Sequence record: MK931439.1
Source: Escherichia phage Sciku
Length of the DNA: 43,130 nucleotides
Direction: 5' to 3' (one strand)
Positions within the stretch are counted from its first letter, which is position 1. Every line of letters begins with the position of its first letter. Both the position numbers and the translations under genes were made by a program. Of the stretch, positions 3,905 to 41,514 are shown piece by piece. Below the pieces are notes generated by a model, which saw nothing but the letters and a program-made list of their open reading frames with translations, was not told the origin of the DNA and did no database searches.

Positions 3905-3934
3905 AATAGTACCCTATTATATTGGTGTCTGCAA
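3905..3934 (-). promoter_or_regulatory. sigma70-like promoter with AATAG-N4-CTATT operator (type B)
   Basis: minus strand: -35 TTGCAG (3934-3929), 17-nt spacer, -10 TACTAT (3911-3906); palindrome AATAGtaccCTATT at 3905-3918. Confidence 0.45.
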
Positions 3935-5508: not shown

Positions 5509-5572
5509 AGCGCCTGTGATTATTCCAGTTATTCCACTCAATTGTAAATGTTGGAATAAACTATTCGAATAG

Positions 5573-5601
5573 TTGACTTTTCACTAAAAATGTGCTAAGC
5601 T
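5573..5601 (+). promoter_or_regulatory. sigma70-like promoter (copy 1 of duplicated promoter-leader unit)
   Basis: TTGACT (5573-5578), 17-nt spacer, TAAGCT (5596-5601); palindrome CTATTCGAATAG abuts the -35 at 5561-5572. Confidence 0.5.
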
Positions 5602-5642
5602 CCACCTGAGCTTGTGAAGTATGAACAAGCGACCGCGGCGCG
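5573..5642 (+). repeat. conserved about 70-bp promoter-leader block, copy 1
   Basis: near-identical to 37503-37572 at a constant offset of 31930; contains a 38-nt identical core CCTGAGCTTGTGAAGTATGAACAAGCGACCGCGGCGCG. Confidence 0.7.
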
Positions 5643-5781
5643 GGCAGGTAACGGAGCGGGACGTAAGTCCTGAGTGTAGTTACGCTGACGCGTTCGGAAG
5701 GGCCATACTCTATTGCTTGTGTAAAAAGTAACTGGTTTACTGAGATTACGCCGTTTCTATGTTTAAATGATAAGGACTAGC

Positions 5782-14255: not shown

Positions 14256-14285
14256 AATAGTATCCTATTATGTTGGGGTGCGCAA
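14256..14285 (-). promoter_or_regulatory. sigma70-like promoter with AATAG-N4-CTATT operator (type B)
   Basis: minus strand: -35 TTGCGC (14285-14280), 17-nt spacer, -10 TACTAT (14262-14257); 26-bp block here is an exact inverted copy of 37811-37836. Confidence 0.5.
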
Positions 14286-14393
14286 GTAATGTGATAGAAT
14301 AATTTTGCGCCTAGTGTCGCACACGAAAAGCGGGTGGTTCCCGTCTGGCGCATTTACCATTAACCTGTAACCTCTTAACCAAAGGATTAAAGA

Positions 14394-24750: not shown

Positions 24751-24888
24751 CTACTCTTCGGATAACTTCTCCAGTACAAACGCCAGTTGCGCATTAGCGG
24801 CGTCTCTCTGTTGCCGTAGTCGTAGAACCTCTTCTTCGAGTTCCTCGATACGTTTTTGCAATGCCGGAATTGGGGCTATGATGTTCAT
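24751..24888 (-). CDS. small coiled-coil hypothetical protein
   Basis: 45 aa ORF whose ATG overlaps the helicase stop (ATGA); heptad-like IEELEEEVLRLRQQ. Confidence 0.3.
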   Translation of the reverse strand: MNIIAPIPALQKRIEELEEEVLRLRQQRDAANAQLAFVLEKLSEE

Positions 24889-27350
24889 TTCTTACCTCGT
24901 CTCTTCATGTAATTAAGCAATTCTTCCTGTACAGATTTCTTCTCGTCGGTGCGCGCGGCAACAACCTCATCCAGCGTGTCTTTAGCGACGATGTGATAGA
25001 GGAACACCGGGCGCTCGTGTCCAGCCTGTTTCTGACGAACAGGGCCTATGCGCTCGACAACCTGCAAATAGTGCTCGAGGTTCCATCCCTGACTTATAAA
25101 CGCCAGATGATGCCCTCCATCCTGTAAATTCAAACCATGGCCGGCTGACGCGGGATGAACACATAAGATTTCGATTTCACCACGGTTCCACGCTTCCATC
25201 TGCTTATTACCCTTAGCTCCTTTGGCAAACGCCTTAGCCTGCGGGAATCGCTTAAGTATGCGCTCCAGTTCGTGTTTAAACTGATAGGCCACCAGTAACG
25301 GCGCGCCCTGCAACTCCTCAACAATGGACTCCAGTGCGTCCAGTTTCGTGTCATGCACTTTCTCCCAGTCTTTCGTTGCTTCGCCATCTGGCCCTGATAC
25401 ATACACGGCACCGGACGCAATCTGGAGACACTTTGATGTCTTCGCTGCCGCGTTAGCGGCTTCAACTTCCCCGCTCTCGAGTTCCGCAAATAACTTCTCC
25501 TCCATATCGATGTACGCCTGACGCGCTTTCTTCGGCAGGTCTATTTCAACAGGAACGATAATCGGCGCTTCGCAACCGAACCACTCTGCAGCATCGATAG
25601 TGAGACTGATATCCTTCATCTTCTGATGAATCTCGGTATCCGCGCCCGGGCGAGCGTGATACTCACGCGCCATAGCCGATTTGCCTTTCTGTATCGAATT
25701 AAACCAGCGGTCGGTAAACGCCGTATACGAAGAACCAAGTCGCTCGCCTGCGTCTATAAACCAGTTCTGCCCCCACAAGTCTTTGAGGCCGTTTGGTGAC
25801 GGCGTACCGGTCAGGTTGATAAAACGCTTAACCTTACCAAACGCCACTTTACTAAGCGCCTTTGCTCGCTTGCTGCCACCAGAACGGCTGCGGAACGATT
25901 TAAGCTTCGTGCTCTCGTCGGCAACGATAACTGTGAAAGGCCAGTCGTCTTTGCCGTAGTAGTCAATCAGCCACTCGATAACTTCGTAGTTAGTGCACAC
26001 CACGTTAGCGTCGGACTCAAGCGCCGTGATGCGGCGCTTCTCCGAACCGGTCGCATCTACTACACGCAGGCACGGGAAACCCCAACGTGCCTGTTCCGCG
26101 GGCCACGTGCCAGACGCAACACGCAACGGGGCGAGGATTAACACGCGGTCGTCGTCATTAAGTTGCCCATTACGGAACAGGCGGTTGAGAACCCACAACG
26201 TTGAGCTTGTATTGTGCGTGACAGTGAAGTCCCCCAATAAAAACCTACTGTCACCGTCGATAGTGAAGCCGAAATAATCATCTACGCCGACCGGGGTTAT
26301 GGATTCTATACCAACGTTAAGCACGTTCTTATTAATATTACGCTTCGGTAAATTCTGGTGGCGTCCTCGCACGAAAGGTACCTCAGAAAAATCGCCAGAT
26401 ACCGACACACGGAAGTAGTCACCCCAAACATCAGTGTTTGCGCAACGCTTACGAGTTTTCTTCTTGTAAGCAGCAAAACCAAGAGAACGGCATAGATAGC
26501 AAAAATCATCAGCAAGTCGCTCGCTTACCGAAATCCAGTCAAAACCCGCTTTAGACAAATCGCAGTAACCATCACTATCCAGAAGCCCCGCCAGCAATTC
26601 TAACCGCTGTCGCCGGTCGCCGCATTTGTAACTATGCGGTATATGCTTATTGTTCAGGACACCCGCCGATTTCAGCGCGTGCGTAAACCCGTGCTTCTTA
26701 TGACCTGTGTTGCCGTAAGATATACTCCATGTAAGTCCTTCTTTTCGTATTTGCATCCCATTACGTGCTGCGTACGACTCAAGATAAGCCCTTATTTCCT
26801 TTTCGTTCTCTCCTGATGTTATGGCCCCCGACGACGAAGTACCGTCACCCAGCCATAACCCCATAAGGTACGGAGGCAATAAAGCCTCGTCCTGCTCTTT
26901 CCTTGTAAAATCGACAGGTACCCGCCAACCCTTAAGATACCCATTAGGTCCGGTTACATATTTCGGCAACTTAAGCCAGTCGCGGACGCTTATGTCGAAA
27001 ACGGTATTATCTGGCCATGAACCTTTTGCAATCCCTGTAGTAGTTCGCAGGGATAATATATGGCTTTCGTTGACCGTATACGACTCTCCTTTTCGCGGTT
27101 TAACCTCGTACATCATCTCCCGGCCTCTACCGAGAGACAGTACATTTCTAGGCGTTGAATCCGGCCCCATAAGCACGTCACCGACGATGACGTCTTCTAC
27201 TTTCTTGGTCGTACCGTCAAACATAATAACTTCCGTCCCGCGTTTCAGGCACTTGCCGCTGCCCATACTAGCCCAGATATTGCAACGTGGGTGCTGTAAC
27301 ATAAACGACGTCATTATTTTCTGGTATTCCCTGCGCCTAAATTTACTCAT
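24885..27350 (-). CDS. SNF2-family helicase precursor containing an intein
   Basis: motif I ASMGSGK|T interrupted after Lys33 by a 347-aa insert; C-terminal helicase region with GHGLNLQ; mature protein predicted 474 aa. Confidence 0.8.
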   Translation of the reverse strand: MSKFRRREYQKIMTSFMLQHPRCNIWASMGSGKCLKRGTEVIMFDGTTKKVEDVIVGDVLMGPDSTPRNVLSLGRGREMMYEVKPRKGESYTVNESHILSLRTTTGIAKGSWPDNTVFDISVRDWLKLPKYVTGPNGYLKGWRVPVDFTRKEQDEALLPPYLMGLWLGDGTSSSGAITSGENEKEIRAYLESYAARNGMQIRKEGLTWSISYGNTGHKKHGFTHALKSAGVLNNKHIPHSYKCGDRRQRLELLAGLLDSDGYCDLSKAGFDWISVSERLADDFCYLCRSLGFAAYKKKTRKRCANTDVWGDYFRVSVSGDFSEVPFVRGRHQNLPKRNINKNVLNVGIESITPVGVDDYFGFTIDGDSRFLLGDFTVTHNTSSTLWVLNRLFRNGQLNDDDRVLILAPLRVASGTWPAEQARWGFPCLRVVDATGSEKRRITALESDANVVCTNYEVIEWLIDYYGKDDWPFTVIVADESTKLKSFRSRSGGSKRAKALSKVAFGKVKRFINLTGTPSPNGLKDLWGQNWFIDAGERLGSSYTAFTDRWFNSIQKGKSAMAREYHARPGADTEIHQKMKDISLTIDAAEWFGCEAPIIVPVEIDLPKKARQAYIDMEEKLFAELESGEVEAANAAAKTSKCLQIASGAVYVSGPDGEATKDWEKVHDTKLDALESIVEELQGAPLLVAYQFKHELERILKRFPQAKAFAKGAKGNKQMEAWNRGEIEILCVHPASAGHGLNLQDGGHHLAFISQGWNLEHYLQVVERIGPVRQKQAGHERPVFLYHIVAKDTLDEVVAARTDEKKSVQEELLNYMKRRGKK
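26211..27251 (-). mobile_element. intein with LAGLIDADG homing-endonuclease domain
   Basis: begins with Cys (TGC at 27251-27249), ends His-Asn (26216-26211) before Thr +1; two LAGLIDADG motifs YLMGLWLGDGT and LLAGLLDSDGY; in frame, 1041 nt. Confidence 0.8.
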
Positions 27351-27538
27351 TTCAGCACCAGCACCAGCTCTTTACGCCCGAACGCCGTAACGTTACCTGT
27401 TACATCTTCAATAACCAGTTTACCGTTAGACTCGACGAACACCGTATCAACGGCAACAGGGCGACGGGTCTTAACGTTGAAAATCATATCGCCTGGTACG
27501 ATGTCACGTGCTGGTTTGCGGTCATATTCGTGTTTCAT
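27347..27538 (-). CDS. hypothetical protein
   Basis: 63 aa ORF whose stop overlaps the helicase ATG. Confidence 0.4.
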   Translation of the reverse strand: MKHEYDRKPARDIVPGDMIFNVKTRRPVAVDTVFVESNGKLVIEDVTGNVTAFGRKELVLVLK

Positions 27539-27568
27539 TTCTCAATTCCTTATATTGTTGGTGTAGGG

Positions 27569-27856
27569 CTAACTATAATAGTTCGCTATTAGGTCGTCAA
27601 CCTGTTTAAACGAACCAACGACAAAAACATTTGCACCACGTTTACGCATCCGCTCGTGCTCTCGTAGCTGGTGGGGGTCCGGCTTCGTGTTTTCATCTTT
27701 CTTAACCTCGACGAACCAGATGACGCTGCCGGGGAGGATTACCAGCAGGTCAGGGGCGCCCACTCTATTTTCGTACGACAATTTGCGTACGAGGCCCCCC
27801 AGGGCCTCGAATCGGTCTTTTGCGTATTTCTGAACAACTCCTTCTTTAGTCGCCAT
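27569..27856 (-). CDS. VRR-NUC domain nuclease
   Basis: 95 aa with PD-(D/E)xK-like core GAPDLLVILPG...FVEVKK typical of VRR-NUC. Confidence 0.6.
   Translation of the reverse strand: MATKEGVVQKYAKDRFEALGGLVRKLSYENRVGAPDLLVILPGSVIWFVEVKKDENTKPDPHQLREHERMRKRGANVFVVGSFKQVDDLIANYYS
27572..27600 (-). promoter_or_regulatory. sigma70-like promoter with AATAG-N4-CTATT operator (type A)
   Basis: minus strand: -35 TTGACG (27600-27595), 17-nt spacer, -10 TATAGT (27577-27572); palindrome AATAGttcgCTATT 27577-27590. Confidence 0.5.
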
Positions 27857-28337
27857 GGTTACAGAAATCTCCGTGTAGTGATTCTCTCGCCGCGCAGACT
27901 ACTTTGTACGCTTCCTCCTTTGTCGAAAAAGCACCGAAATATATGCGCTTCCCGTTCACGGTTATCCTTGCCCTAAATTTACCTCTTTCAGGTGATACCC
28001 CCTTTAAACATGAGGTGTTGTCACGCCTTACCCTTGCGTTTCTGGTATTCTCCCACCTGGTCGCTAACCGCAGGTTGCAAATCCGATTATCCGCACGGTC
28101 GCCGTTTATATGGTCAACCTCCTCCGGCGGCATATCACCGTACACCCACCACCAAGCCAATCGGTGTGCCGGATAGTGGACGTTTCTGAACACAACTTTC
28201 ATATACCCAAGGTCAGTGTAGTTATTTATAGCTTTCCCCGGAACAGACCGCGGACCACTTCGCTTAACCCATTTGAATACCCCAGTATCAGGGTCGTACG
28301 ACAGGAAATCTTTTATATCGTCACTTGGTGCTTTCAT
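27846..28337 (-). CDS. HNH homing endonuclease with AP2-like DNA-binding domain
   Basis: HNH core HRLAWWWVYGDMPPEEVDHINGDRADNRICNLRLATRWEN; C-terminal AP2-like GVSPERGKFRARITVNGKRIYFGAFSTKEEA; ATG 28337 with GAGGGG RBS. Confidence 0.75.
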   Translation of the reverse strand: MKAPSDDIKDFLSYDPDTGVFKWVKRSGPRSVPGKAINNYTDLGYMKVVFRNVHYPAHRLAWWWVYGDMPPEEVDHINGDRADNRICNLRLATRWENTRNARVRRDNTSCLKGVSPERGKFRARITVNGKRIYFGAFSTKEEAYKVVCAARESLHGDFCNHGD

Positions 28338-28419
28338 AATACGCACCCCTCACGTTTCGTATGCTCAATCCCGCAGCGCGGGCAGATTCGGCAGTCTTCT
28401 TCGTATAACCAGTAAATTT

Positions 28420-28551
28420 TCATTCCAGCACCCACATATAAATTGCGATGAACATGCCTAATACGGCAACCATCATGCCGTATTGGCCCTCGTGGCAGTA
28501 GACACCGGCGGCGAATCCTGCCAGTACCGCGATAATTAGTTTACTTAGCAT
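28420..28551 (-). CDS. small hydrophobic membrane protein
   Basis: 43 aa ORF MLSKLIIAVLAGFAAGVYCHEG...; start overlaps the polymerase stop. Confidence 0.3.
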   Translation of the reverse strand: MLSKLIIAVLAGFAAGVYCHEGQYGMMVAVLGMFIAIYMWVLE

Positions 28552-30712
28552 AACGCTTCATCTCCGCACCTTCCGCTACAAGAGGGAAGCCTTCTGCCCA
28601 CTCAGGCAGAGAACACATTAATTTTTCCAGTTCGCCCACCGTGTACTCAGATGTATCGGGGGTTTCGCAGATAATCTCATCGTGAACATGAAGTACAATT
28701 GGATAGCCGTTTGCTTCTACGTTCAGCAGGGCGTTAGCCAGCAAATCACGGCACAGCGCCTGAGTGCAGTTTTCCACGAGTTTACCGGAGTAGGTGTACT
28801 GGAAGCCCCACTGACGGGTTAACTGATTCTCTCCCTGGTACTTGATATGCACGTTAGTAGACACCTTCCCGTCTTCGTCTGTCTCTTTCGACACGCTCAA
28901 CCCGATGCCTGGATAGGACATAACGCGGCCAGACGGCAACGTCATGCGCAACCACCAACCGGCGACTTTGTTGCCGTTGTTGTCTGTATCTACGTTACGC
29001 GAAAACTTAACGCCCCGCGGCCCTGCGGTGAACTCTTTGCCTGGATTGCGGATAGCAGCCATAGCTGCGTCTTCAATATCTCGCCAGAATTGTACTATCG
29101 CTGGATTGGCCTCTCGGTACATGCGTTTCAGAGCGTCACATGTTCTCCATACTTTCTTATCAAGTATATATGATGGTCGGTCATCCTTTTCACCAGGACG
29201 TGGTGGTCGCTTGGCTTCCTGAATACGTGCCCACTCGTAACCGCGTGCAGTAGCAGCCCAAATATGGTCCGGGAAAGTTCCGTCTAAAGTGCGTGTCATA
29301 TCATTCAAATCAAGACCTAAGTTTTTAGCAAACGTGACGAAAGCACCGACACCACCCGCGTAGCCGAGGCCCAGAACCATTGCTTTGGCTATTTGTCTTT
29401 GGTCCTTTGTTACGTCGTCATAACTAACGTTGAACACGGTTGATGCGAGTTTCTTATACACATCAACCCCGTTTACAAATACTTCTATTAAATCGTCTTC
29501 ACCAGCAAGCCACGCAAGCCCGCGGCCCTCGACGTTAGAGTAATCAGCGACGACAAACTTGTGCCCTTCTTCTGGTATGATGCAGCTACGAACCGTCGAT
29601 GCCGTTAGCTTGGCTACGTCAAAACGGCGATGAGCACGGCCTTTAAGTAGCGCTGAAATACCTTTATCCAGTTCCTCATCATGGTAATACCCGCGAGCCA
29701 GGTTCTGTGGCTGGAAGCCTTTACCAGCAAATCGTAACGTACGCTTGGCCCCACCATACTGGATGCAACCCCGGCGGCGGTCGTCAGACGAGCGACCTAA
29801 CAGCAATGGGTTGTATTTCGTGGACGCCGTGGACGCGGCCCCGAGGCGCATTTCAATAATCGTACGCGCATCGTCCTGTAAATCATCATCCGCCAGCAGG
29901 TCATTCAGCGTCGACTTCTGTGCGTTGTGGATGCGGTGGGCGGGGGCGAGTTCACGCAGAATCGGCAGGAAGTCTTTACCGGTGAGTGAGCAGCCGTATT
30001 TGCGCTGGGCTTCTTCCTGCAACTGCGCCTTGTGCTTCTCTACGGCTTCAATCGCTGCTTCCGCCAGCGCAACATCAACCTTGAACCCACGGTCATTGAT
30101 TAACTGGTCCAGTTCCAGTACACGGTCTTCGAACTCAGAGTTACCCCACCGCGGCAGCTTATGGAATACTTCACGCATCGCGGTGATGTCGCTCACGGCG
30201 TACTTGATGAACAGCGCCCACTCGTCCGAGTGCGTTTCGGCGGTGTAGCGGCGGATTTTGTAGTTCTTCGGTGTCGGTTTAGAAAAACGCTTAATCAGCG
30301 CCTTGCCGCGTTTGTCTTTCGCGTTGTCTGCAGACACGCCCAGCACTTCACACAGCGCGTCAAGTGAACCCGGCAGCGCGTGACGAAATGCCCAAATCAT
30401 CGTATCAATGGTGTTGCTTACAGGAATATCAAAGCCCCAACAGTGCTTCATGATGAGCCTATCGAACATTGAGCCGTTGTGCCACACCATCTTAATGCGG
30501 CTGTTTGGCTTAGCCAGACGGCGTAACGCGCGGTGCAAATCTCCCGGCATGTCGCTGCCGTCGGTGCAATCCCATGCCTGTACAGGCTCGTCGTCAAAAG
30601 CATAGGTACAGATGAGCACTTCGGTGGTTGGGTGTTCGGCGTAAGCGTAGGAGCCAACTTTCTTTAAATCGGCCTCGGAGAATGTTTCAAAGTCTAAGAA
30701 CAGGTAACTCAT
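28541..30712 (-). CDS. family A DNA polymerase with 3'-5' exonuclease domain
   Basis: Exo I motif FLDFETFS at N-terminus; motif B KAMVLGLGYAGGVGAF; motif C VLHVHDEI. Confidence 0.85.
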   Translation of the reverse strand: MSYLFLDFETFSEADLKKVGSYAYAEHPTTEVLICTYAFDDEPVQAWDCTDGSDMPGDLHRALRRLAKPNSRIKMVWHNGSMFDRLIMKHCWGFDIPVSNTIDTMIWAFRHALPGSLDALCEVLGVSADNAKDKRGKALIKRFSKPTPKNYKIRRYTAETHSDEWALFIKYAVSDITAMREVFHKLPRWGNSEFEDRVLELDQLINDRGFKVDVALAEAAIEAVEKHKAQLQEEAQRKYGCSLTGKDFLPILRELAPAHRIHNAQKSTLNDLLADDDLQDDARTIIEMRLGAASTASTKYNPLLLGRSSDDRRRGCIQYGGAKRTLRFAGKGFQPQNLARGYYHDEELDKGISALLKGRAHRRFDVAKLTASTVRSCIIPEEGHKFVVADYSNVEGRGLAWLAGEDDLIEVFVNGVDVYKKLASTVFNVSYDDVTKDQRQIAKAMVLGLGYAGGVGAFVTFAKNLGLDLNDMTRTLDGTFPDHIWAATARGYEWARIQEAKRPPRPGEKDDRPSYILDKKVWRTCDALKRMYREANPAIVQFWRDIEDAAMAAIRNPGKEFTAGPRGVKFSRNVDTDNNGNKVAGWWLRMTLPSGRVMSYPGIGLSVSKETDEDGKVSTNVHIKYQGENQLTRQWGFQYTYSGKLVENCTQALCRDLLANALLNVEANGYPIVLHVHDEIICETPDTSEYTVGELEKLMCSLPEWAEGFPLVAEGAEMKRYAK

Positions 30713-30771
30713 TATTTTCGACCCTTAGTAAAAAGGCCCAATGAAGGGCCTTAGTTAAATCGATTCAGATA

Positions 30772-31398
30772 TTAGCGACGGCGACGTTCGCGGCGCGGTG
30801 CTGCATCTTCATCGTCGTCTTCCAGGTCATCGACACTTGCGGCGACTTTAGAACCACCGAACGCTTTACCTTCGCCAACATATTTAATTGCCAGAAGGTT
30901 AACACCGAGGACTTTGTATTTCTGGCTGAACCAGATTTCGACGCTTACGTTAGCAACGCAGCCGCTGTAAACCTGTTCACCTTCAATCTGTTCGCCGTCT
31001 ACGTTGAAGTCCTGTTCTACCTGAGTCTCACCTTTTTTAGAGGTTACAATCAGTGGCTGTTTCTGCGCCTTCGCTTTGAAGTAGAAGCCTTCCGGGAAAT
31101 CTTCAAACGGATTGTCGCGCTCGGCAATGTCTTTAATCGCGCATTTATCCATGTGCTTACCTTCGCCGTAGTTGGACTTCATCCATTTCTCGGCGGCGGC
31201 GGCACCTAATGCTTCTTCAACTACAGCATAAACAGCGTCGTATAGCGCGTCGATTTGAGCATGGTCGGACGGCAGGATAATCGTTGCGCTGTACTGGCCC
31301 TTAGTGATTGAGCCATCATCGTTTTCACGGTCTTTTTCGCGTTCGAATACGTTAACCCATGCAGTGTTTACTTTACGCAGATTTAATTTCAGTCCCAT
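30772..31398 (-). CDS. putative ssDNA-binding protein (DUF2815-like)
   Basis: 208 aa with acidic C-terminal tail DDLEDDDEDAAPRRERRRR; sits between polymerase and a nuclease-like gene. Confidence 0.45.
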   Translation of the reverse strand: MGLKLNLRKVNTAWVNVFEREKDRENDDGSITKGQYSATIILPSDHAQIDALYDAVYAVVEEALGAAAAEKWMKSNYGEGKHMDKCAIKDIAERDNPFEDFPEGFYFKAKAQKQPLIVTSKKGETQVEQDFNVDGEQIEGEQVYSGCVANVSVEIWFSQKYKVLGVNLLAIKYVGEGKAFGGSKVAASVDDLEDDDEDAAPRRERRRR

Positions 31399-31456
31399 CG
31401 TGATTTCTCGCTTTTAAGTTTCGTTTACTCCGGGAAGCTGCCCGGCCAGTGATTTA

Positions 31457-31485
31457 ACTATAATAGTTTGCTATTCAGGTGTCAA
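31457..31485 (-). promoter_or_regulatory. sigma70-like promoter with AATAG-N4-CTATT operator (type A)
   Basis: minus strand: -35 TTGACA (31485-31480), 17-nt spacer, -10 TATAGT (31462-31457); palindrome AATAGtttgCTATT 31462-31475. Confidence 0.55.
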
Positions 31486-31675
31486 CACTTTATTTACTAT
31501 CTGGGTTAATTACATGCCTTACATCAATCTTACCTTTGTTAACCATTCGGATAATTTTACCCATCTCGTCGTGCATTACCATATTAAATACGCGGCGTAT
31601 CGTTTTGTTTTTACCTAGCTTTGCCCCGTTTCGGTACTGTTCTACGTAGCTTTTTTTGCAATTCTTGAATCGTAC

Positions 31676-32917
31676 TCATTCTAAATCCTCCTCTGTTACA
31701 CGGTCCCACTCAGGCCGTTTATCGTCTGCCGCGGCGACGCATGGCGCTCCCGGCTTACGGGTAATGAAGTCTTTCAGTTCTTCTTCCGGGATAACTTTAA
31801 CAGCTTCTGTCGGCGTCATGAGCACTTCTTTAGTCAGCTTGTCGCCGTAGAGTTCTGCTACTTTCTCTGCATCTTTCCACGCACGATTACCAGGACGACC
31901 CTCGACCAACTTGTACCCTGGCACTTTCTTACCGGAATGTAACGCAGCTGCCATCGCTTTCTCAACCTTGTCGATGTGCTGTCGTAACAGCGGTAACTTC
32001 TCATACTCAGCGACGAGTTGCTCAGGTGTCAGTTCAAGCGCAAAGTCGTCCTCCAGTTCTTCTGCCAGTACCGCGTTAACCGTCTTCGTACGTGCGGCGC
32101 ACTGTTCAGAGAACCGACACCACTGACAACCATCGACCGACGGCTTGAAGTCCGACGCTTTCAGGTTCTTCTTGCCACGGGAATAGGCATCTAACGTTAA
32201 CAGCGCACGTTTCTGCGCGAACTTAGCGAACAGTTCCAGACCTTCAACCGAGATGTCCCACTCTGACGCACCACCAGCATACGGCTGGAAGATGACAAGA
32301 CGAACGGTTGTTATGCTATAACGTCTCTTGAGTCGGCGATAAACACCGAGAGCGTAAAGCATAAGCTGTTTGTTTTCTTTCGCTTCGACACGATGTCGCC
32401 CGGTTTTCAGGTCGCCGATGATAAGCATGTACTCGTCGGTGTTGGCCCGTTCCTGAACGGCGACAAGGTCAGCGGTCCCGAACGTCTCAACGCCTTCATA
32501 GCCTGGATGCAATACCTCAGTAAGATTTACGCGCATTTCCAGCTTGGCGTAAGTCGCTACGTCGATAATCGCTTTGCAGTAATCGGTGTACTTGCGCACC
32601 TGCTCAATCATATCCGCCGTAATTAGTACCGCGCCTTTCATTGGGCTGATTAGTGCCTTAATCTGGCCTCTACCCTCATCCAGCACATAAGCGCCGACTT
32701 CGCGCTCTAACGGCAACGCAGTCCCGCGGATATAGGCGTTGAGATGGACCTCTGCTATGGTGTGGCACGCGGTCCCTGTAACGGCGGCTTTACCAGACGT
32801 GTTAGGAATATCTTTTTCACAGGCCAGTGACGCACTGCACGTCAGCCACTTCTTAGCACCCGACGGTGACAATATGGCGTGCACATCATTATTGCCCCCG
32901 CGTTCCTTTAAAATCAT
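31676..32917 (-). CDS. PD-(D/E)xK-type nuclease (DUF2800-like)
   Basis: ATG 32917 overlaps upstream stop (ATGA) with GGAGA RBS; N-terminal ILSPSGAKKWLTC and Cys-rich C-terminal cluster as in Cas4/RecB-like nucleases. Confidence 0.55.
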   Translation of the reverse strand: MILKERGGNNDVHAILSPSGAKKWLTCSASLACEKDIPNTSGKAAVTGTACHTIAEVHLNAYIRGTALPLEREVGAYVLDEGRGQIKALISPMKGAVLITADMIEQVRKYTDYCKAIIDVATYAKLEMRVNLTEVLHPGYEGVETFGTADLVAVQERANTDEYMLIIGDLKTGRHRVEAKENKQLMLYALGVYRRLKRRYSITTVRLVIFQPYAGGASEWDISVEGLELFAKFAQKRALLTLDAYSRGKKNLKASDFKPSVDGCQWCRFSEQCAARTKTVNAVLAEELEDDFALELTPEQLVAEYEKLPLLRQHIDKVEKAMAAALHSGKKVPGYKLVEGRPGNRAWKDAEKVAELYGDKLTKEVLMTPTEAVKVIPEEELKDFITRKPGAPCVAAADDKRPEWDRVTEEDLE

Positions 32918-33186
32918 ACCCTGTTCTCCCACTGGTCAATTAAATGTCTCGTCTTATGGTCGCAATGTAAGGCCCATCCATACATCGACTCGAAGACATA
33001 AAAGTCAGGTTTGGCGAATGTCGTGCGCTTAATCTGCGACACGTGACGGCCTGTATCTTTGGGCCGTGGTGCTTTGCCTAAGTACGCCATTTCTTCCATC
33101 TGATGCGCACCGGATGGCGCACGCAATAGCCACAACGCCTCGGTGTTATCGCGCCTGTCTACGGCTCGGTAGAGTTGGTAAATCAT
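32914..33186 (-). CDS. hypothetical protein
   Basis: 90 aa minus-strand ORF translationally coupled to the downstream nuclease gene. Confidence 0.4.
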   Translation of the reverse strand: MIYQLYRAVDRRDNTEALWLLRAPSGAHQMEEMAYLGKAPRPKDTGRHVSQIKRTTFAKPDFYVFESMYGWALHCDHKTRHLIDQWENRV

Positions 33187-33229
33187 AATTCCGACCCTCA
33201 GTTAAAGCGGCCCGGAGGCCGCAGGATAA

Positions 33230-33721
33230 TTATTCTTCTTCGAAATACTTGTTCTTGATTGCCGTCAGGCGCTCCAGGTATTCAACCAGGTCTTCGTCTT
33301 TAATCGCGGCAATCTTCATCTTCTTACCGGTGAACTCTTCCAGCAGTTCATCGGAGTCATCGCACGCGGCATCGCTCGGGCCTTCGTTAATCGCACCGTC
33401 GATAGCCTGAATCTGGTCGCGCAGAGACTGGTAATCGACTTCTTCTTCCGGTTCTGGCGTCGGCTCCTCTACTTTAGCTTTACGCGGCTTGCGTTTCGGC
33501 TTCTCTTCTTCTTCCGGTTTAGTGTCGACTACGTCTTCACCTTCAACCGGGATTTCTTTTGTTTCTTCTTTAATACTTTCAGAGAACTGCTCAATTTTAT
33601 GCGCGGCTACTGCGGCGGCCTCTTTGGCAGTAGTTGGCGCGAACTGTTTTGCACTGTTCGCAGCAATCAGTTCATGGGCAACTACGAAACGCTCCAGTAA
33701 TTTCAGAAATTGTTCTAACAT
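33230..33721 (-). CDS. acidic hypothetical protein
   Basis: 163 aa, Glu/Asp-rich with a central lysine-rich patch; GGAGAGAAA RBS. Confidence 0.45.
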   Translation of the reverse strand: MLEQFLKLLERFVVAHELIAANSAKQFAPTTAKEAAAVAAHKIEQFSESIKEETKEIPVEGEDVVDTKPEEEEKPKRKPRKAKVEEPTPEPEEEVDYQSLRDQIQAIDGAINEGPSDAACDDSDELLEEFTGKKMKIAAIKDEDLVEYLERLTAIKNKYFEEE

Positions 33722-33736
33722 TTGTTTCTCTCCTGT

Positions 33737-33886
33737 TTATTTATACTTAACGGTTTTGACTAACTGGCCTGTTGCTTTGTCGAAGAAGCCAACACGATTG
33801 TTGCTTACGCTATATCGTGCGGTTTCTTTAGTTCCAAATGCGATATCAAGGCCTAACAGAATCTTTGCTTTGCGGTTGTTAACCAT
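33737..33886 (-). CDS. small hypothetical protein
   Basis: 49 aa ORF, first gene downstream of promoter 33917-33945; AGAGGAGAGA RBS. Confidence 0.35.
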   Translation of the reverse strand: MVNNRKAKILLGLDIAFGTKETARYSVSNNRVGFFDKATGQLVKTVKYK

Positions 33887-33916
33887 TGTGTCTCTCCTCT
33901 CGTTTGGTATGGGCTA

Positions 33917-33945
33917 ACTATAATAGCGAACTATTCACTTGTCAA
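33917..33945 (-). promoter_or_regulatory. sigma70-like promoter with AATAG-N4-CTATT operator (type A)
   Basis: minus strand: -35 TTGACA (33945-33940), 17-nt spacer, -10 TATAGT (33922-33917); palindrome AATAGcgaaCTATT 33922-33935. Confidence 0.55.
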
Positions 33946-34009
33946 TGGGTTTTTCTAAAATAATTAATATGGTACTATTCACGCATCAACTAACTAAGGA
34001 GTAACTGAC

Positions 34010-34225
34010 ATGCAACCATCTGAACTAGGCATCCGTGTAGAACAACGCCGTAAAGAACTCGGCATCTCCCAGCGCCGTCTGGCTGTCCTGACTGGCGTTT
34101 CCCAGGGCGCGATTAACCAACTGGCACTTGGGGTAACTCAGGACGTCCGCCCGGCGACGCTGTTTAAACTGGCGGAAGTGCTGGAGATAGACGCCAAGTG
34201 GCTGGCGTTAGGTGAAGGGGCTTAA
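34010..34225 (+). CDS. Cro/CI-type helix-turn-helix transcriptional regulator
   Basis: 71 aa; HTH ISQRRLAVLTGVSQGAINQLALG typical of XRE/Cro family; AAGGAG RBS; only plus-strand gene inside the minus-strand block. Confidence 0.7.
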   Translation: MQPSELGIRVEQRRKELGISQRRLAVLTGVSQGAINQLALGVTQDVRPATLFKLAEVLEIDAKWLALGEGA

Positions 34226-34256
34226 TGCCCCTTTCTTTTTATAGCAACTTATCGAG

Positions 34257-34553
34257 CTATTCCAAATTCTTAATCGTGTGTTGCACGTTCAGGTACTGAA
34301 TCCACGCAAAAAGCCATACGCTTAACGGAAAACTAACCACAGCTGCCGTTCTGAAAACAATGTGGACGGTACACGCTACAATTTCCTTTACCGTCATATC
34401 CAGAACGTGGCGCAATTCTGCAACTTCCTCTAACGCTAGCTTGCAAGCAGGCCACCATTGGTGTGCTACACAAGAAACACATGTCAGGTACGACGGGCGG
34501 TATCCAGCCCTCACTGCTTTAAACGGGTTATCTATAAAATCGTAGATATTCAT
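34257..34553 (-). CDS. hypothetical protein
   Basis: 98 aa ORF with Cys-rich N-half and hydrophobic C-terminus; start overlaps primase stop. Confidence 0.4.
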   Translation of the reverse strand: MNIYDFIDNPFKAVRAGYRPSYLTCVSCVAHQWWPACKLALEEVAELRHVLDMTVKEIVACTVHIVFRTAAVVSFPLSVWLFAWIQYLNVQHTIKNLE

Positions 34554-36811
34554 TCCAAATCCTCTTCTGTCACTATCAGCATCTCATTCGGCTCGTATAT
34601 TGTCTTCGGAATCTTGTTATCGTTTATGCCCCACGGCAGCCGATATTGCTTAGGTATAGGCCTGTTGTTATTATCCAGCCCAGAGACGATAACCCCGGCC
34701 TCGTGCATCTCCTCCAGTTTCTTTCGAAGGTCGTTATTAGCGTTAATCGGTACACCATAACTATCTTCTTTCACCGCTTTGACGATAGCGGACATAGAAA
34801 ACCCTCGCTTGTCGTCGCCCTGCTCCTGCAATTTACCTAATGCGTAAATAACCGTAGCTTCTTTGGTACCCAGTTTCTTGAACTGGCCTACCTTTTCTTT
34901 AACGGCTTCCTTCTGTTCGTCGGTCATACCTTCTACTTTCTTCACGAAGACAGAGAAGGCGTTAAAGTTAACAAAGACATCGATGTGCGGATTTCCCGCG
35001 TCAAAATCTCGTACATCGTCACTGCTATACCCTTCCGGAAGCACCATGAAGTTGTGAGTTGGTTCTTTCTTTTCCGGCGGCTCCGCTATCTGAATCTTCT
35101 GTATTACGAATCCTCTGGCTTTCTGCCGTTCTCCGTTTCGGTTCTTTATGTGATACAGGTTTATCTCTAAGTTATTGTCGTTGTCTGGTTTATGCAGGAA
35201 CATCCCGTTATCGATGGAGTTGTGAAAGTCGCTCCCACCCTTCGGCATCATGCCGTTTTCAGACGGTACGGTTTCGTCGATGTTTTTAGTCGGGTGCACC
35301 ATAGCGCCTACCGCAGCGTTAAGCGTCGACGCTATTTCGTTAAGCGCCTGCGCCGCTTCTTTCATCGACCTGTTGTCGTTCTCGTCGAAGCCTGGTATGC
35401 AAGTTTGTAGGGTATCAAACGTAACCTTTACAATTTTCTCTTCACCGGCGACACGGCGCATCATTCTTACCGCCTGGCGGCGCCATGCTTCATCAAGTAA
35501 ATTACACCCATCGGCAACACAATCGATAATGTGCAAGCGGTCCAGGCTATCCCCGAGGGCAATCTGCAAAGACTTTTTATGTCGCTCGAACGACTGTGCG
35601 CCTTCACCGGCGAAAATGAACGCATGTCCTTCTGCAACCTCTGCCCCACCGAACGCATATCTTTTTTCGGCGGCAATAGCGGCGTCAATCGCCATACTAA
35701 ATGTCGACTTACCAGTGTGGGACTTTGCGCAAATGTAAAACGATTCGTTAGTCTGCATAAGGCCGTCTACGACGGAGTAAGCAGGTTCTTTTTCAACTTC
35801 CGGCTCGTCTTCGAGGTCTTCCAGAGTGCAAGTTACAGGCTCTTCATTCTCTGTGCGGTGTAATTCCTCAATCTCTTCGTCCGGTAAATCAGGCAGAGCC
35901 GCACGAATGCTGTTAATACTGATAGGTTGCTTGTCTACGTTAAGCTCGTCCGGAAGACCGCACATACGCAGAGCCAAATGTTGTCGGCGGTTAAGCTCGG
36001 TGCAAGCGCCGTTGTTTGTGTGCTGGCACACGAAGCGCACTTCTTTACCATCAAGCATAATGCTGGTAGAGCCTTTGCCGGTGTGCAGGTGTTCGTTAGG
36101 GCAAGGCACTTCGTACCCGCGACCGGAAGATAAAGCGTCAAGGCCAAGCTCCGCTTCGCAGAAATGCGCTATATCCGCGTTAAGCCCATGCTCATCGGCA
36201 GCAAGGGTCTTAGCTTCACGTTTACGCAACCCCATTTCTTCGGCTTTCTTGATGTACCGCTCGGCACGGATAACACGCCCTTCTGTAACCGTTATCTTCG
36301 ACTCTTTATGCGGCAGGTAGATAAGGCGGTTGCCATCTTCTGTGCAGTGGTCACGCAGCGCTTCGTCTATCTCTAACTCTGCACAAATGGCGCGTTGTAC
36401 CATCCACGCATCGTTAGAGTTAAACGGCGTGCGTGCAGGTACAAGAACGCGAAAGGCGTAATCCCCGTTTTTACACGCGTGCTGATGCGACGCCGTTGTG
36501 TGCAGAATGTTGAAGAACGGCGCGTTCTTGAATTTGCGCGTCAGGTCGCGGTACTGAGCGCGGTTGAGATGGTCAAAGTCGAACTTAACCACACTGTCTT
36601 CCAGAATCGCGTTCTTACGGCGACCGCCAACCGGCGCAATAGCTTTCTGCTTAATCTTGGCCGCGTCGTACTCTTCCTTAGTCCATGACGGGTCTACGGA
36701 CAGACGCTTCGATGTATCGCAGACATACTCTACAAACTGCTCCAGTGGCATTTCACGGGCTACCGGGTTTTTATCGAATGTGTTACGCAGCGTTGCAAAA
36801 ACAATATTCAT
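34550..36811 (-). CDS. DNA primase / helicase
   Basis: 753 aa; Cys/His cluster CPNEHLHTGKGSTSIMLDGKEVRFVCQH; Walker A AKSHTGKST in the central domain. Confidence 0.7.
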   Translation of the reverse strand: MNIVFATLRNTFDKNPVAREMPLEQFVEYVCDTSKRLSVDPSWTKEEYDAAKIKQKAIAPVGGRRKNAILEDSVVKFDFDHLNRAQYRDLTRKFKNAPFFNILHTTASHQHACKNGDYAFRVLVPARTPFNSNDAWMVQRAICAELEIDEALRDHCTEDGNRLIYLPHKESKITVTEGRVIRAERYIKKAEEMGLRKREAKTLAADEHGLNADIAHFCEAELGLDALSSGRGYEVPCPNEHLHTGKGSTSIMLDGKEVRFVCQHTNNGACTELNRRQHLALRMCGLPDELNVDKQPISINSIRAALPDLPDEEIEELHRTENEEPVTCTLEDLEDEPEVEKEPAYSVVDGLMQTNESFYICAKSHTGKSTFSMAIDAAIAAEKRYAFGGAEVAEGHAFIFAGEGAQSFERHKKSLQIALGDSLDRLHIIDCVADGCNLLDEAWRRQAVRMMRRVAGEEKIVKVTFDTLQTCIPGFDENDNRSMKEAAQALNEIASTLNAAVGAMVHPTKNIDETVPSENGMMPKGGSDFHNSIDNGMFLHKPDNDNNLEINLYHIKNRNGERQKARGFVIQKIQIAEPPEKKEPTHNFMVLPEGYSSDDVRDFDAGNPHIDVFVNFNAFSVFVKKVEGMTDEQKEAVKEKVGQFKKLGTKEATVIYALGKLQEQGDDKRGFSMSAIVKAVKEDSYGVPINANNDLRKKLEEMHEAGVIVSGLDNNNRPIPKQYRLPWGINDNKIPKTIYEPNEMLIVTEEDLE

Positions 36812-37003
36812 TTCTTTTTCTCCGCACGTTCTAAGGCTTCCAGCATACGGCGCATTGCGCGTTCATCTTTACCGGTGCGAAGAAGTCTGCGCCGTGTTTC
36901 TGGCGGCGTAGCTGTGGAACTATTAATTTCGCCATTGTATAATCCTTGTGCTTACTTTGATGATTTGTGCTTCGGCCCCGACGTCCTAGCGTTGGGGTTT
37001 CTT

Positions 37004-37216
37004 TTATTTATCGCCTGCAAACCACGCGTGCGCAGAATCATAGAAACGACATTTACTTAATACCTCGATTGGCATCTTAATAATGCGCGTCGGTTCCGAC
37101 AAATGATTAGGCTTACATATTTCTGCATAGAATCCGCTGTCAGTAATTTCTGACGCAAACTTAAACCAGTATTTAACTTTACCGTCTTCAAAGTAACAAC
37201 CCATACGCCCAATCAT
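37004..37216 (-). CDS. hypothetical protein
   Basis: 70 aa ORF overlapping (ATGA) the stop of the upstream HTH gene. Confidence 0.4.
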   Translation of the reverse strand: MIGRMGCYFEDGKVKYWFKFASEITDSGFYAEICKPNHLSEPTRIIKMPIEVLSKCRFYDSAHAWFAGDK

Positions 37217-37395
37217 TTCACGTTCTCCTTAATCCATGCTTCAACTTTATTACGGTCAAATGTACCCGGTAAACGGCGGCCCATTACTTTAATACAGCAG
37301 TCAGGGAATTTACCACTGCGCAGCCAGTTATTAATTGTCTGACGTGTCACACCGATACGTTCTGCTACTTCATTCTGGGTCATGTAATGTTGCAT
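37213..37395 (-). CDS. small HTH DNA-binding protein
   Basis: 60 aa from ATG 37395 with AGGAGA RBS; HTH-like QNEVAERIGVTRQTINNWL; first gene of the leftward block. Confidence 0.55.
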   Translation of the reverse strand: MQHYMTQNEVAERIGVTRQTINNWLRSGKFPDCCIKVMGRRLPGTFDRNKVEAWIKENVK

Positions 37396-37426
37396 TTTTA
37401 TATCTCCTGTTTGTTTGGTGAAGCTG

Positions 37427-37455
37427 AGTATAGGATAGCGGGAATGTAAAAGCAA
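37427..37455 (-). promoter_or_regulatory. sigma70-like promoter for the leftward replication block
   Basis: minus strand: -35 TTGCTT (37455-37450), 17-nt spacer, -10 TATACT (37432-37427). Confidence 0.4.
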
Positions 37456-37502
37456 CCAAAACGCCACACAAAGTTACTAAGATACAAAAGATGCTTCAGG
37501 TA

Positions 37503-37531
37503 TTGACTTTTACTAAGAAATATGGTAAGCT
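37503..37531 (+). promoter_or_regulatory. sigma70-like promoter (copy 2 of duplicated promoter-leader unit)
   Basis: TTGACT (37503-37508), 17-nt spacer, TAAGCT (37526-37531); same architecture as 5573-5601. Confidence 0.5.
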
Positions 37532-37572
37532 CAGCCTGAGCTTGTGAAGTATGAACAAGCGACCGCGGCGCG
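37503..37572 (+). repeat. conserved about 70-bp promoter-leader block, copy 2
   Basis: near-identical to 5573-5642 with the same 38-nt core; weaker similarity continues for about 70 nt. Confidence 0.7.
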
Positions 37573-37717
37573 CGGCAGGCGAAACGAGCACGTGTAGCGT
37601 GTGGAGTGAGGCTCGCTAGCGCGTTTGGGAGGCCCCAAGTCTATTGTAATTCCAGCCTAAGTAGCTAAGTTACTGATTTGCCGTAGGTTAGAACCGCCAG
37701 CTCACTCACTCACTCTT

Positions 37718-37800: not shown

Positions 37801-37829
37801 TTGCACACCCCAACATAATAGGATACTAT
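37801..37829 (+). promoter_or_regulatory. sigma70-like promoter with AATAG-N4-CTATT operator (type B)
   Basis: -35 TTGCAC (37801-37806), 17-nt spacer, -10 TACTAT (37824-37829); palindrome AATAGgataCTATT 37817-37830. Confidence 0.5.
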
Positions 37830-37863
37830 TCACTTATCGAAACGAGACAGAGGAGTGAGGGCT

Positions 37864-38733: not shown

Positions 38734-38762
38734 TTGCACGCTGGGGAAGAATAGGATACTAT
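38734..38762 (+). promoter_or_regulatory. sigma70-like promoter with AATAG-N4-CTATT operator (type B)
   Basis: -35 TTGCAC (38734-38739), 17-nt spacer, -10 TACTAT (38757-38762); palindrome AATAGgataCTATT 38750-38763. Confidence 0.5.
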
Positions 38763-38885
38763 TCATTTACACAAACGAGAGGAGAGGCAGAATATGGTTA
38801 CTTTGATGATTATGGAGTTCGAAAACAGCGCTGCAACTTACCGCGACATGTTCAACGAAACGATTAGCTAAGCAGGAGAAATAAG

Positions 38886-39095
38886 ATGGTACAGAGATAC
38901 GAGATAATAAGATGGGGTCTGCCGGAGATGGCTAAGTACCCATACGGTGACTACGTTGAGTATGACAGCTATAAGGAACTGGAGGCCCGACTGGAAGAAG
39001 TCAACGCTGAGTTACAGAAATACAAAGACCAGTTCCCGGATTACGTCGAGTGCGCGAACTGCGGGTCGGTTACACATGTGGAAGGGGTGGATTGA
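38886..39095 (+). CDS. small hypothetical protein, paralog A (MVQRY family)
   Basis: 69 aa; N-terminus MVQRYEI and Y-x-EY-x-SY-x-ELEA pattern shared with the next gene. Confidence 0.45.
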   Translation: MVQRYEIIRWGLPEMAKYPYGDYVEYDSYKELEARLEEVNAELQKYKDQFPDYVECANCGSVTHVEGVD

Positions 39096-39349
39096 TGGTG
39101 CAGAGATACGACTTAACAGAATACTACGTGAGTGGTGCGGTAGATATAACGCCTGTCCCGGACTCGCATGAAGGGCGTTATGTAAGCTACGAAGACTACG
39201 CGCAACTCGAAGCTGAACTCATGAAAGTAAAAGCCGCAGCCCGTTGTCTTGTGCGAGAAGCAGGTAAGGTGTATAGCGATTATAGTGACGTTATAGCACC
39301 TGAGTTTGTAGACCAGCAAACCATACACGAACTAGGTATTCTGTTATGA
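39095..39349 (+). CDS. small hypothetical protein, paralog B (MVQRY family)
   Basis: 84 aa from ATG 39095; N-terminus MVQRYDL; same pattern as 38886-39095. Confidence 0.45.
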   Translation: MVQRYDLTEYYVSGAVDITPVPDSHEGRYVSYEDYAQLEAELMKVKAAARCLVREAGKVYSDYSDVIAPEFVDQQTIHELGILL

Positions 39350-39639
39350 GCCTTGCAACTGACATCCTGAAACGCAGCGGCCTTGCGCCGCTGTCGCCGA
39401 GAGCAAACACTCAGATATACAAGCGCCGCCGTAATACGCTGTACCCAGAGATACAGGAACGACGTAAAGCTATCCGCGCCTGTGGATTCCAGAACGGGAA
39501 GGCCGTGAATCTCGGTGAGTTTAAAACACAAGAACGCGCCGCAATCGCTAATCGACTATTTAATTACTGGAAATCGCTGGGGTACGATGATATTCCGACG
39601 AAACCCCAGAGACGACAATACATCTGGAGGCACAAATGA
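39346..39639 (+). CDS. hypothetical protein
   Basis: 97 aa basic ORF with ATGA overlaps on both sides. Confidence 0.4.
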   Translation: MSLATDILKRSGLAPLSPRANTQIYKRRRNTLYPEIQERRKAIRACGFQNGKAVNLGEFKTQERAAIANRLFNYWKSLGYDDIPTKPQRRQYIWRHK

Positions 39640-40073
39640 CTACTATCGCGTTTGACGGAAAGACGATGGCCTGTGACACCCGAGTAACCGGAGACCACAT
39701 CTACAACACAGATACCAAGATATATGAGAACGAGTTTGTTGTTATCGGTGTAGCAGGCAATGCTGAGGCTGGTATCCTTTTAGTGAAGGACGATAGTATT
39801 TTAGTGCCTAAGCACTACGATTTTGATTTCTCTGCTTTGGTGTGGGTTAAAGACATCGAAACGTTGTGCAAAGTAGAATTCTATAAATCATGGGATTGTG
39901 CACTAAGTTCGGTTATCCCTGTTGCAGATGGTTTTGCCGCCGTCGGTTCCGGTGCACCTTATGCACTGGCGGCTATGTATTTAGGTAATACGGCAACACG
40001 TGCAATTACTATAGCAGAGCAATTCGACCCTAACACCGGCGGCAATATTATTACCAAACAACTATTAGGATAA
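39636..40073 (+). CDS. HslV-like (proteasome-type Ntn-hydrolase) peptidase
   Basis: N-terminal MTTIAFDG with Thr2 as candidate nucleophile; GVAGNAEAG and AVGSGAPYALAA align with HslV GFAGGTADA and GSGGPYAQAA as recalled; 145 aa; GGAGG RBS. Confidence 0.6.
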   Translation: MTTIAFDGKTMACDTRVTGDHIYNTDTKIYENEFVVIGVAGNAEAGILLVKDDSILVPKHYDFDFSALVWVKDIETLCKVEFYKSWDCALSSVIPVADGFAAVGSGAPYALAAMYLGNTATRAITIAEQFDPNTGGNIITKQLLG

Positions 40074-41463: not shown

Positions 41464-41485
41464 ATCTATTTTCTGTAATGACTAG

Positions 41486-41514
41486 TTGACTATTATTCTG
41501 ACACCAATTATATT
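41486..41514 (+). promoter_or_regulatory. sigma70-like promoter
   Basis: TTGACT (41486-41491), 17-nt spacer, TATATT (41509-41514). Confidence 0.45.

Follow-up and report, generated by a model that had tools for sequence, protein, structure and literature searches.

A lone Cro-type gene and a palindrome in promoter cores of a Kagunavirus phage: a candidate system for early and replication gene shut-off

The stretch of DNA analysed here (hereafter the window; 43,130 nucleotides of Escherichia phage Sciku, MK931439.1) contains a replication block in which one small gene, encoding a Cro-like regulator, is read against all of its neighbours. Why does such a gene stand alone on the plus strand of a phage that has neither integrase nor CI, and which DNA sites might its product control? 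The window is 99.9% identical to Escherichia phage Shashou (MK931440.1; Kagunavirus, Guernseyvirinae), both over the whole length and within 33000-35500. A segment of 1,021 bp of the Shashou record (38849-39868) is missing from the window at ~38850, the rest being 99.9% identical.

The cro gene, its product and its position

The gene, its own signals and the module facing it are listed below.

34010-34225, plus strand: cro-like gene (open reading frame list), encoding a 71-aa XRE/Cro-type helix-turn-helix (HTH) protein
33996-34001, plus strand: ribosome-binding site AAGGAG, read from the sequence 8 nt before the ATG and annotated in the record
34214-34234, plus strand: intrinsic terminator with a GC-rich hairpin and T run (terminator scan; record), overlapping the cro stop codon
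34257-37637, minus strand: helicase-primase module gp51-gp56 (annotation), convergent with cro and including gp55 at 37213-37395

The gene call is not new: MK931440.1 already labels the open reading frame 'transcriptional regulator cro' on the grounds of BLASTp similarity to 434 Cro. Its AAGGAG is kept in an alignment of nine Kagunavirus sequences plus Ent3. The terminator, which lacks a T run on the opposite strand, makes cro monocistronic and keeps it from running antisense into the helicase operon. In the Shashou record, the minus strand holds every other annotated gene from 24751 to 37637; the first-pass annotation had correctly described cro as the only plus-strand gene of this block, whose length is 12.9 kb rather than the 12.6 kb given there. 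It had also described a phage without integrase or CI, and indeed neither is annotated in the record. A search of 5,426 complete E. coli genomes with the cro region returned nothing, and therefore no prophage source.

A profile search of the product matched Pfam HTH_3 with 46 bits against a cutoff of 23 (E=5.6e-12), and HTH_19 (35.5 against 30.2) and HTH_31 (29.8 against 27) also scored above their cutoffs. The solved relatives closest by sequence were 434 Cro (E=7.7e-6, about 38% identity) and the N-terminal domain of the 434 repressor. The AlphaFold2 model (pLDDT 77) placed helices at residues 5-17, 21-28, 32-39, 48-57 and 62-66, which is the five-helix fold with helices 2 and 3 as the HTH. 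Foldseek against the PDB ranked 434 Cro (2cro) first (TM 0.70/0.76), with 434 Cro and 434 repressor at 0.70-0.80. The initial assignment to the XRE/Cro-type HTH proteins is thereby confirmed by both sequence and fold. The predicted recognition helix reads S31-Q-G-A-I-N-Q-L38, and its first Gln, Q32, is nearly invariant in the homologue alignment.

Other classes of HTH regulator did not account for the gene. With 71 aa, an HTH only and no Peptidase_S24 domain, the product falls outside the CI-type (LexA-like) class, and the divergent cI-type partner sharing operators that defines a lambdoid switch is missing, as no CI or integrase is annotated. The first leftward genes of Shashou and six relatives gave no Pfam HTH match; a CI remnant as first leftward gene was ruled out by this absence of an HTH in seven lineages. 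An XRE-type antitoxin (HigA-, HipB- or MqsA-like) does not fit a monocistronic gene with both neighbours on the other strand, and the match to MqsA reached only E=0.088, below the cutoff. Nor is it a restriction-modification (R-M) controller (C) protein: no R-M genes flank it in the annotation, and C.AhdI and C.BclI appeared solely as generic fold matches of the model. On sequence and predicted fold, the gene product is a stand-alone Cro-type (434-Cro-like) HTH protein.

The position of cro 'against the grain', as it had been described, holds, and the gene order of relatives gives it a structural explanation. A rightward operon with cro at its head is seen in Cornellvirus, SenTO17, Tsm2, Scapp and 20 IMG/VR loci, where the order is a leftward exonuclease/SSB/polymerase operon, a divergent control region, then rightward cro followed by the helicase-primase. 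The helicase is thus on the plus strand, co-directional with cro, in these 20 other IMG/VR loci, VSiP, SenTO17, Tsm2 and Scapp. The helicase-primase lies on the minus strand, together with gp55, in the 11 Kagunavirus and 11 Jerseyvirus loci inspected, and in the window it converges with the monocistronic cro. The helicase-primase of the window also differs in type, sharing only 27-29% identity with the Ent3 and VSiP types. We therefore attribute the isolation of cro on the plus strand to replacement of its downstream helicase-primase module, in reversed orientation, in the Kagunavirus/Jerseyvirus lineage. Insertion of cro into a minus-strand block was set aside, since the gene order in relatives shows module replacement.

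Further observations were made in and around this module. The replicative helicase-primase is mosaic within the subfamily (window 34550-36811; locus L002 34781-36967; locus L003 34828-37128), and other Kagunavirus loci carry an Ent3-like helicase-primase at 58-65% identity. The segment after this gene in VSiP (L003, 37120-37420) is non-coding and rich in GGGGGAG-type repeats. An element of ~70 bp is duplicated on the same strand of the window (5573-5648 and 37503-37579, plus; 91% identity), comprising a TTGACT-N17-TAAGCT promoter-like site, an AGCTC..CCTGAGCT hairpin and an identical start of a small Arg-rich ORF (MNKRPRR...), which is annotated as gp7 in the first copy. Because the second, unannotated copy (37503-37579) overlaps gp56 on the minus strand, gp56 may be a miscall.

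The control region and the palindrome across the genome

Two palindromic sites, designated O1 and O2, were located between cro and the divergent leftward genes.

33922-33935: O1, perfect palindrome AATAGCGAACTATT (palindrome search), in the spacer of the leftward promoter
33917-33945, minus strand (33945 to 33917): type A promoter TTGACA-17-TATAGT (promoter scan), 11/12 to consensus
33966-33979: O2, imperfect palindrome AATATGGTACTATT, agreeing at 9/10 specified positions and lying across the -10 of cro itself
33970-33978, plus strand: likely cro promoter core, extended -10 TGgTACTAT, as read from the sequence

The divergent type A promoter that had been proposed upstream of cro was recovered by the promoter scan and serves gp49, gp48, gp47 and the exonuclease. 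The imperfect operator copy reported with it also stood, with AATATGGTACTATT exactly at 33966-33979; its left half-site is degraded to AATAT, and its right half is the TACTAT -10 itself. A good -35 is not present before this extended -10, and the consensus scan proposed instead TTCACT-16-TAAAAT at 33934-33961 as the cro promoter. The Jerseyvirus counterpart is a full type B promoter (TTGCGT-17-TACTAT; types A and B are described below), and the cro promoter of the window probably belongs to type B as well. Since leftward transcripts meet no terminator before cro, antisense interference with the gene is possible.

Across the window, AATAG-N4-CTATT was found in 8 exact copies against about 0.04 expected (about 195-fold). 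Allowing up to one mismatch, 8 exact and 3 one-mismatch copies stood against 1.26 +/- 1.17 expected, a total of 11 that no shuffle out of 100 attained. When all 4-6 bp palindromic half-sites were counted without bias, it was the only enriched non-terminator palindrome in the genome. Seven of the eight exact copies fall within the cores of sigma-70-type promoters for non-structural genes and take two registers with respect to the -10; the seven operator instances counted at first pass are correct as promoter-embedded copies, and the eighth (21426) is located within a tail gene.

In the type A layout, TTGACA-N4-AATAGnnnnCTAT-TATAGT, the palindrome is placed between the -35 and the -10. Its three sites (27577, 31462 and 33922, all on the minus strand) belong to the replication promoters of the helicase, of SSB and DNA polymerase, and of the exonuclease block. 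In the type B layout, TTGCAC-N10-AATAGnn-TACTAT-T, the palindrome runs across the -10 at four early-gene promoters (3905 and 14256, minus; 37817 and 38750, plus), whose targets are small early-type genes, a superinfection-immunity/phosphatase block and a clamp-like gene. The sites outside the cro control region are as follows.

27577-27590: putative operator in a type A promoter (27600 to 27572, minus) of gp38 and the intein-containing helicase
31462-31475: putative operator in a type A promoter (31485 to 31457, minus) of the ssDNA-binding protein and DNA polymerase
3905-3918: putative operator at the -10 of a type B promoter (minus) of the sliding-clamp-like gp4
14256-14269: putative operator at the -10 of a type B promoter (minus) of the superinfection-immunity, phosphatase block
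37817-37830: putative operator at a type B -10 (TTGCAC-17-TACTAT, plus) of the small rightward genes gp57-61
38750-38763: putative operator at the -10 of the second rightward type B promoter, for gp62 onward

Homologous sites were identified for 31462 (Ent3 32221, VSiP 31230, Tsm2 4171), for 27577-27590, which is embedded in the 3' end of a VRR-NUC endonuclease gene (Ent3 28011), for 37817 (Ent3 37971, Tsm2 10097) and for 14256 (Ent3 15800). The occurrence of two registers relative to the -10 favours a separate binding site over a polymerase contact element.

The remaining copies have other surroundings. The eighth exact copy is the core of a longer perfect palindrome with 10-bp arms, ACCGAAATAG-AAAA-CTATTTCGGT, at 21421-21444 of the window, within the tip-attachment (J-like) gene and without promoter context. 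Two one-mismatch sites, 5568-5581 and 41481-41494, carry TTGACT (-35) at their centre, and these promoter-like sites (plus) precede the head-gene and far-right operons; the latter is syntenic in Jerseyvirus Ent3 (L002 40956-40969). They may represent a third class of operator, of lower strength, at promoters on the late side. The annotated 30-aa hypothetical gp25 (window 14268-14361) is probably no real gene, because it overlaps the type B promoter/operator at 14256-14290.

The motif has already been published and read as phage-RNA-polymerase promoters (PMC9825357), and seven PHIRE promoters are listed in the Golestan paper. No RNA polymerase gene is annotated in Shashou or in the relatives examined. 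The published reading is a misreading.

Conservation, lineage variation and the candidate binding protein

The Cro-like protein was detected by tblastn in 535 phage records, about 116 of them at at least 93% identity (Kagunavirus) and about 350 at 46-48% (Jerseyvirus), and cro is intact and in the same position in more than 500. A word-indexed protein search returned 20 close Kagunavirus homologues, and the IMG/VR locus scan gave the wider diversity. The HTH segment GVSQGAINQLALGV is invariant in variants that are 75-79% identical overall, and GVSQGAINQLALGVTQDV is likewise unchanged in Kagunavirus variants of this range.

These data bear on the suggestion that cro is what remains, without function, of a lost lysogeny module. 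Such a leftover would agree with the missing CI and integrase annotations and with other temperate-type remnants noted in Jerseyvirus (PMC9409062). However, the gene is intact and syntenic in over 500 records with an HTH that is invariant among diverged variants, it keeps its own ribosome-binding site, promoter and terminator, and its orthologue is transcribed in phage K1B4 (PMC12645636). Neither a neutral substitution pattern (dN/dS near 1) nor frequent frameshifts were seen in 47 Kagunavirus/Jerseyvirus loci. We regard a functionless leftover as highly improbable, and the remnant considered at first pass is not borne out: the sequence record indicates that cro is maintained and not decaying. 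Its descent from a temperate-type switch is plausible.

The upstream sequences were compared across 37 IMG/VR Kagunavirus loci (35 distinct sequences). The AATAG and CTATT of O1 are invariant in 37/37 loci, the site lying at -87 to -89 from cro. By contrast, six different N4 spacers occur, and both the sequence and the length of the segment from O1 to the -35 differ among loci. The O1 half-sites thus show a clean phylogenetic footprint. O2 is identical in 35 of the 37, with one variant being AATATGCTACTATT, and Jerseyvirus has ATTACTGTACTATT in its place.

Beyond Kagunavirus, the motif persists and varies by lineage. At homologous promoters, Jerseyvirus Ent3 has 8 matches (up to one mismatch) against 1.32 expected. 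The Serratia phage Tsm2 carries two perfect AATAG-N4-CTATT sites, as well as a different inverted repeat, TAGTGGGT/ACCCACTA, in its cro region. In locus L071 (Cro helix TQGGIGHI), two perfect AATAC-N4-GTATT sites were found within 8.7 kb, one in the leftward promoter next to cro and the other behind the helicase; this symmetric G-to-C change in both arms would be expected of a diverging dimeric binder. Cornellvirus VSiP and SenTO17 (helix TQSAISHL) have 8-9 AWTA-N6-TAWT sites each (nine in VSiP against 2.3 expected), most of them ATTAG-N4-GTAWT. With respect to transcription the latter are found in either orientation, and relative to the -10 they are displaced by 3 bp, with a third register in VSiP, where a direct-repeat search returned terminators and no promoter family. 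No palindrome was recognisable at the leftward promoter for the helices SQSALSFV and SQGYISHL and for Scapp; a short inverted-repeat search of control regions, which missed 5-bp arms, also gave none in Scapp.

The correspondence between helix and operator is loose, because Jerseyvirus changes four of the eight recognition-helix residues (SQSLITHL against SQGAINQL) and yet keeps the AATAG/CTATT core; a strict helix-to-operator code is not supported on these grounds. Nearly all lineages keep the promoter-proximal half-site, (C/G)TATT, beside the -10, and promoter function may account for part of this conservation.

This last feature, that one half-site always abuts or overlaps the -10, would also be seen if the palindrome were a host-factor site or an intrinsic promoter feature, with Cro aimed at host or resident-prophage genes (mimicry, counter-defence). 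Leaning the same way as that alternative, the nearest HTH relatives outside Guernseyvirinae are CI-type repressors with S24 domains (40-51% identity), and RDF and Ant, temperate-type genes noted in virulent Jerseyvirus, have been proposed to act on resident prophages (PMC9409062). However, we know of no E. coli regulator with an AATAG-N4-CTATT consensus. The motif takes two registers relative to the -10 in Shashou and a third in VSiP, and it occurs in both orientations relative to transcription. Its sequence differs between lineages with the same hosts (Salmonella Jerseyvirus and Cornellvirus), and one lineage has changed symmetrically to AATAC/GTATT. These changes of register, orientation and lineage fit a diverging phage-encoded dimer and not a host factor or polymerase contact, and we consider the host-directed alternative improbable.

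A different phage protein could also bind the palindromes, with Cro acting locally or elsewhere. The first such protein is gp55 (60 aa, 37213-37395, minus), an HTH_17, TorI/excisionase-like protein assigned to phrog_66 'excisionase and transcriptional regulator'. Between Kagunavirus and Jerseyvirus, which both have the sharp motif, gp55 is 80-84% identical and Cro only 46-48%, and the gp55 orthologue is among only four 'early' genes in K1B4. The second is a NinH-like protein, 61-69% identical across Ent3, VSiP and SenTO17. Against these points, gp55 is confined to Kagunavirus and Jerseyvirus, being absent from VSiP, SenTO17, Tsm2 and all 20 co-directional IMG/VR loci, and phages without it keep motif-type sites at homologous promoters, with perfect palindromes in Tsm2 and L071. 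As a rule, small winged helices of the excisionase/TorI type recognise direct repeats, as monomers or filaments, rather than 14-bp palindromes. As main binder, gp55 was rejected on its phylogenetic distribution despite its better conservation than Cro, and the NinH-like protein was rejected for its absence from Tsm2, which has perfect palindromes. Binding by another phage protein is, in our judgement, unlikely.

As gp55 and the NinH-like protein are missing where the motif persists, the Cro-like protein is the only HTH protein found in every lineage with the motif. The early proposal that it is the best candidate binder of AATAG-N4-CTATT is upheld on this basis. The Cro-like protein most likely binds the palindrome built into nearly all early and replication promoters, presumably as a dimer on AATAG-N4-CTATT.

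A candidate promoter, TTGCTT-17-TATACT, was observed directly upstream of gp55 (window 37427-37455, minus) and holds no palindrome. This fits the 'early' class of the gp55 orthologue in K1B4, as gp55 would escape the proposed Cro control.

Proposed mode of action and comparison with known systems

The reading that we favour, and consider probable, is a Cro-only shut-off of early and replication genes with self-repression, for which AATAG-N4-CTATT would be the operator. For binding, repression and timing, we infer the following course from the arrangement of the sites. After infection, host polymerase would fire all type A and type B promoters, including that of cro. As Cro accumulates, a dimer on the promoter-core operator (spacer and/or -10) would block host RNA polymerase, and the early and replication operons would be turned down. 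At a higher level, Cro would fill the weaker O2 over its own -10, resulting in self-repression. Because CI, integrase and an S24 domain are all missing, the system would be a one-protein timer or dosage limiter and not a lysis/lysogeny switch.

A broader claim is that a single Cro-type protein and a promoter-core operator form the master temporal control of all Guernseyvirinae (more than 500 sequenced phages, many of them put forward for therapy), with protein and operator having co-diversified (AATAG/CTATT, AATAC/GTATT, ATTAG/GTAWT). We hold this tentatively, at somewhat below even chance. If it is true, the reported 'phage-specific promoters' of Guernseyvirinae are Cro operators.

Transcription has been profiled in one relative. 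In the RNA-seq of the Kagunavirus K1B4, the cro orthologue (gene 004, 3386-3601, plus, 216 nt) is the lone plus-strand gene before the helicase and is classed as 'middle', and the gp55 orthologue (gene 008) is 'early'; the time course is coarse and silent on target promoters (PMC12645636). No binding, expression or genetic study of the Cro-like protein or the motif was found in the literature searched.

Kagunavirus and Jerseyvirus are commonly isolated as therapeutic phages against E. coli and Salmonella. If confirmed, the proposed shut-off would provide a simple model for early and replication gene timing in these phages with host RNA polymerase only, and it would correct the misreading of the motif as promoters for an RNA polymerase that they do not encode (PMC9825357). 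A 'lysogeny-type' gene need not mean a temperate lifestyle, a point that bears on safety screening. Small orthogonal repressor-operator pairs might also be drawn from the lineage-specific operator variants. For specialists the proposal holds no surprise: Cro/XRE repressors with palindromic promoter operators are textbook, and this would be a phage regulator of an ordinary kind.

Among known systems, 434 Cro is the nearest in structure, with the same 71 aa, the same five-helix fold and the conserved first Gln of the recognition helix. The 434 operator is 14 bp long, with outer half-sites of 4-5 bp around a centre that is not contacted (ACAA-N6-TTGT). Its outermost A is read by Gln28, and all half-site variants of the present lineages likewise begin with A. 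Unlike 434, the window phage is virulent, has no CI partner and no tripartite OR, and uses AATAG-N4-CTATT as its putative operator, with sites spread across the genome over seven or more promoters instead of being grouped at two operator regions.

In its proposed role, the protein would resemble lambda Cro, a small early repressor that damps early transcription (PL, PR) and itself. Lambda Cro differs in having another, non-homologous fold and in competing with CI, and the window phage has no such competitor.

The full CI-type proteins from IMG/VR (HTH_3 plus Peptidase_S24; loci L054, L068-70, L073, L091, L092 and L094) have N-terminal domains 40-51% identical to the window protein, as close as the Jerseyvirus orthologue, and share a C-terminal D-x-x-W-L-x-x-G motif. 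They differ in their length of 208-235 aa with a self-cleaving S24 domain, the window protein ending at residue 71, and in their unrelated genomic contexts without the helicase/exonuclease/SSB module. Since these full CI-type repressors are the closest relatives in IMG/VR outside the replication module, the protein may equally be called a 'CI N-terminal domain' and a 'Cro'.

The arrangement of sites recalls P1 C1 and the 'stoperators' of mycobacteriophage L5 gp71, where one repressor has many short sites scattered at or near promoters. Those proteins are immunity repressors of temperate phages and recognise asymmetric sites, whereas the window phage, which has no lysogeny, carries palindromic sites within its promoter cores.
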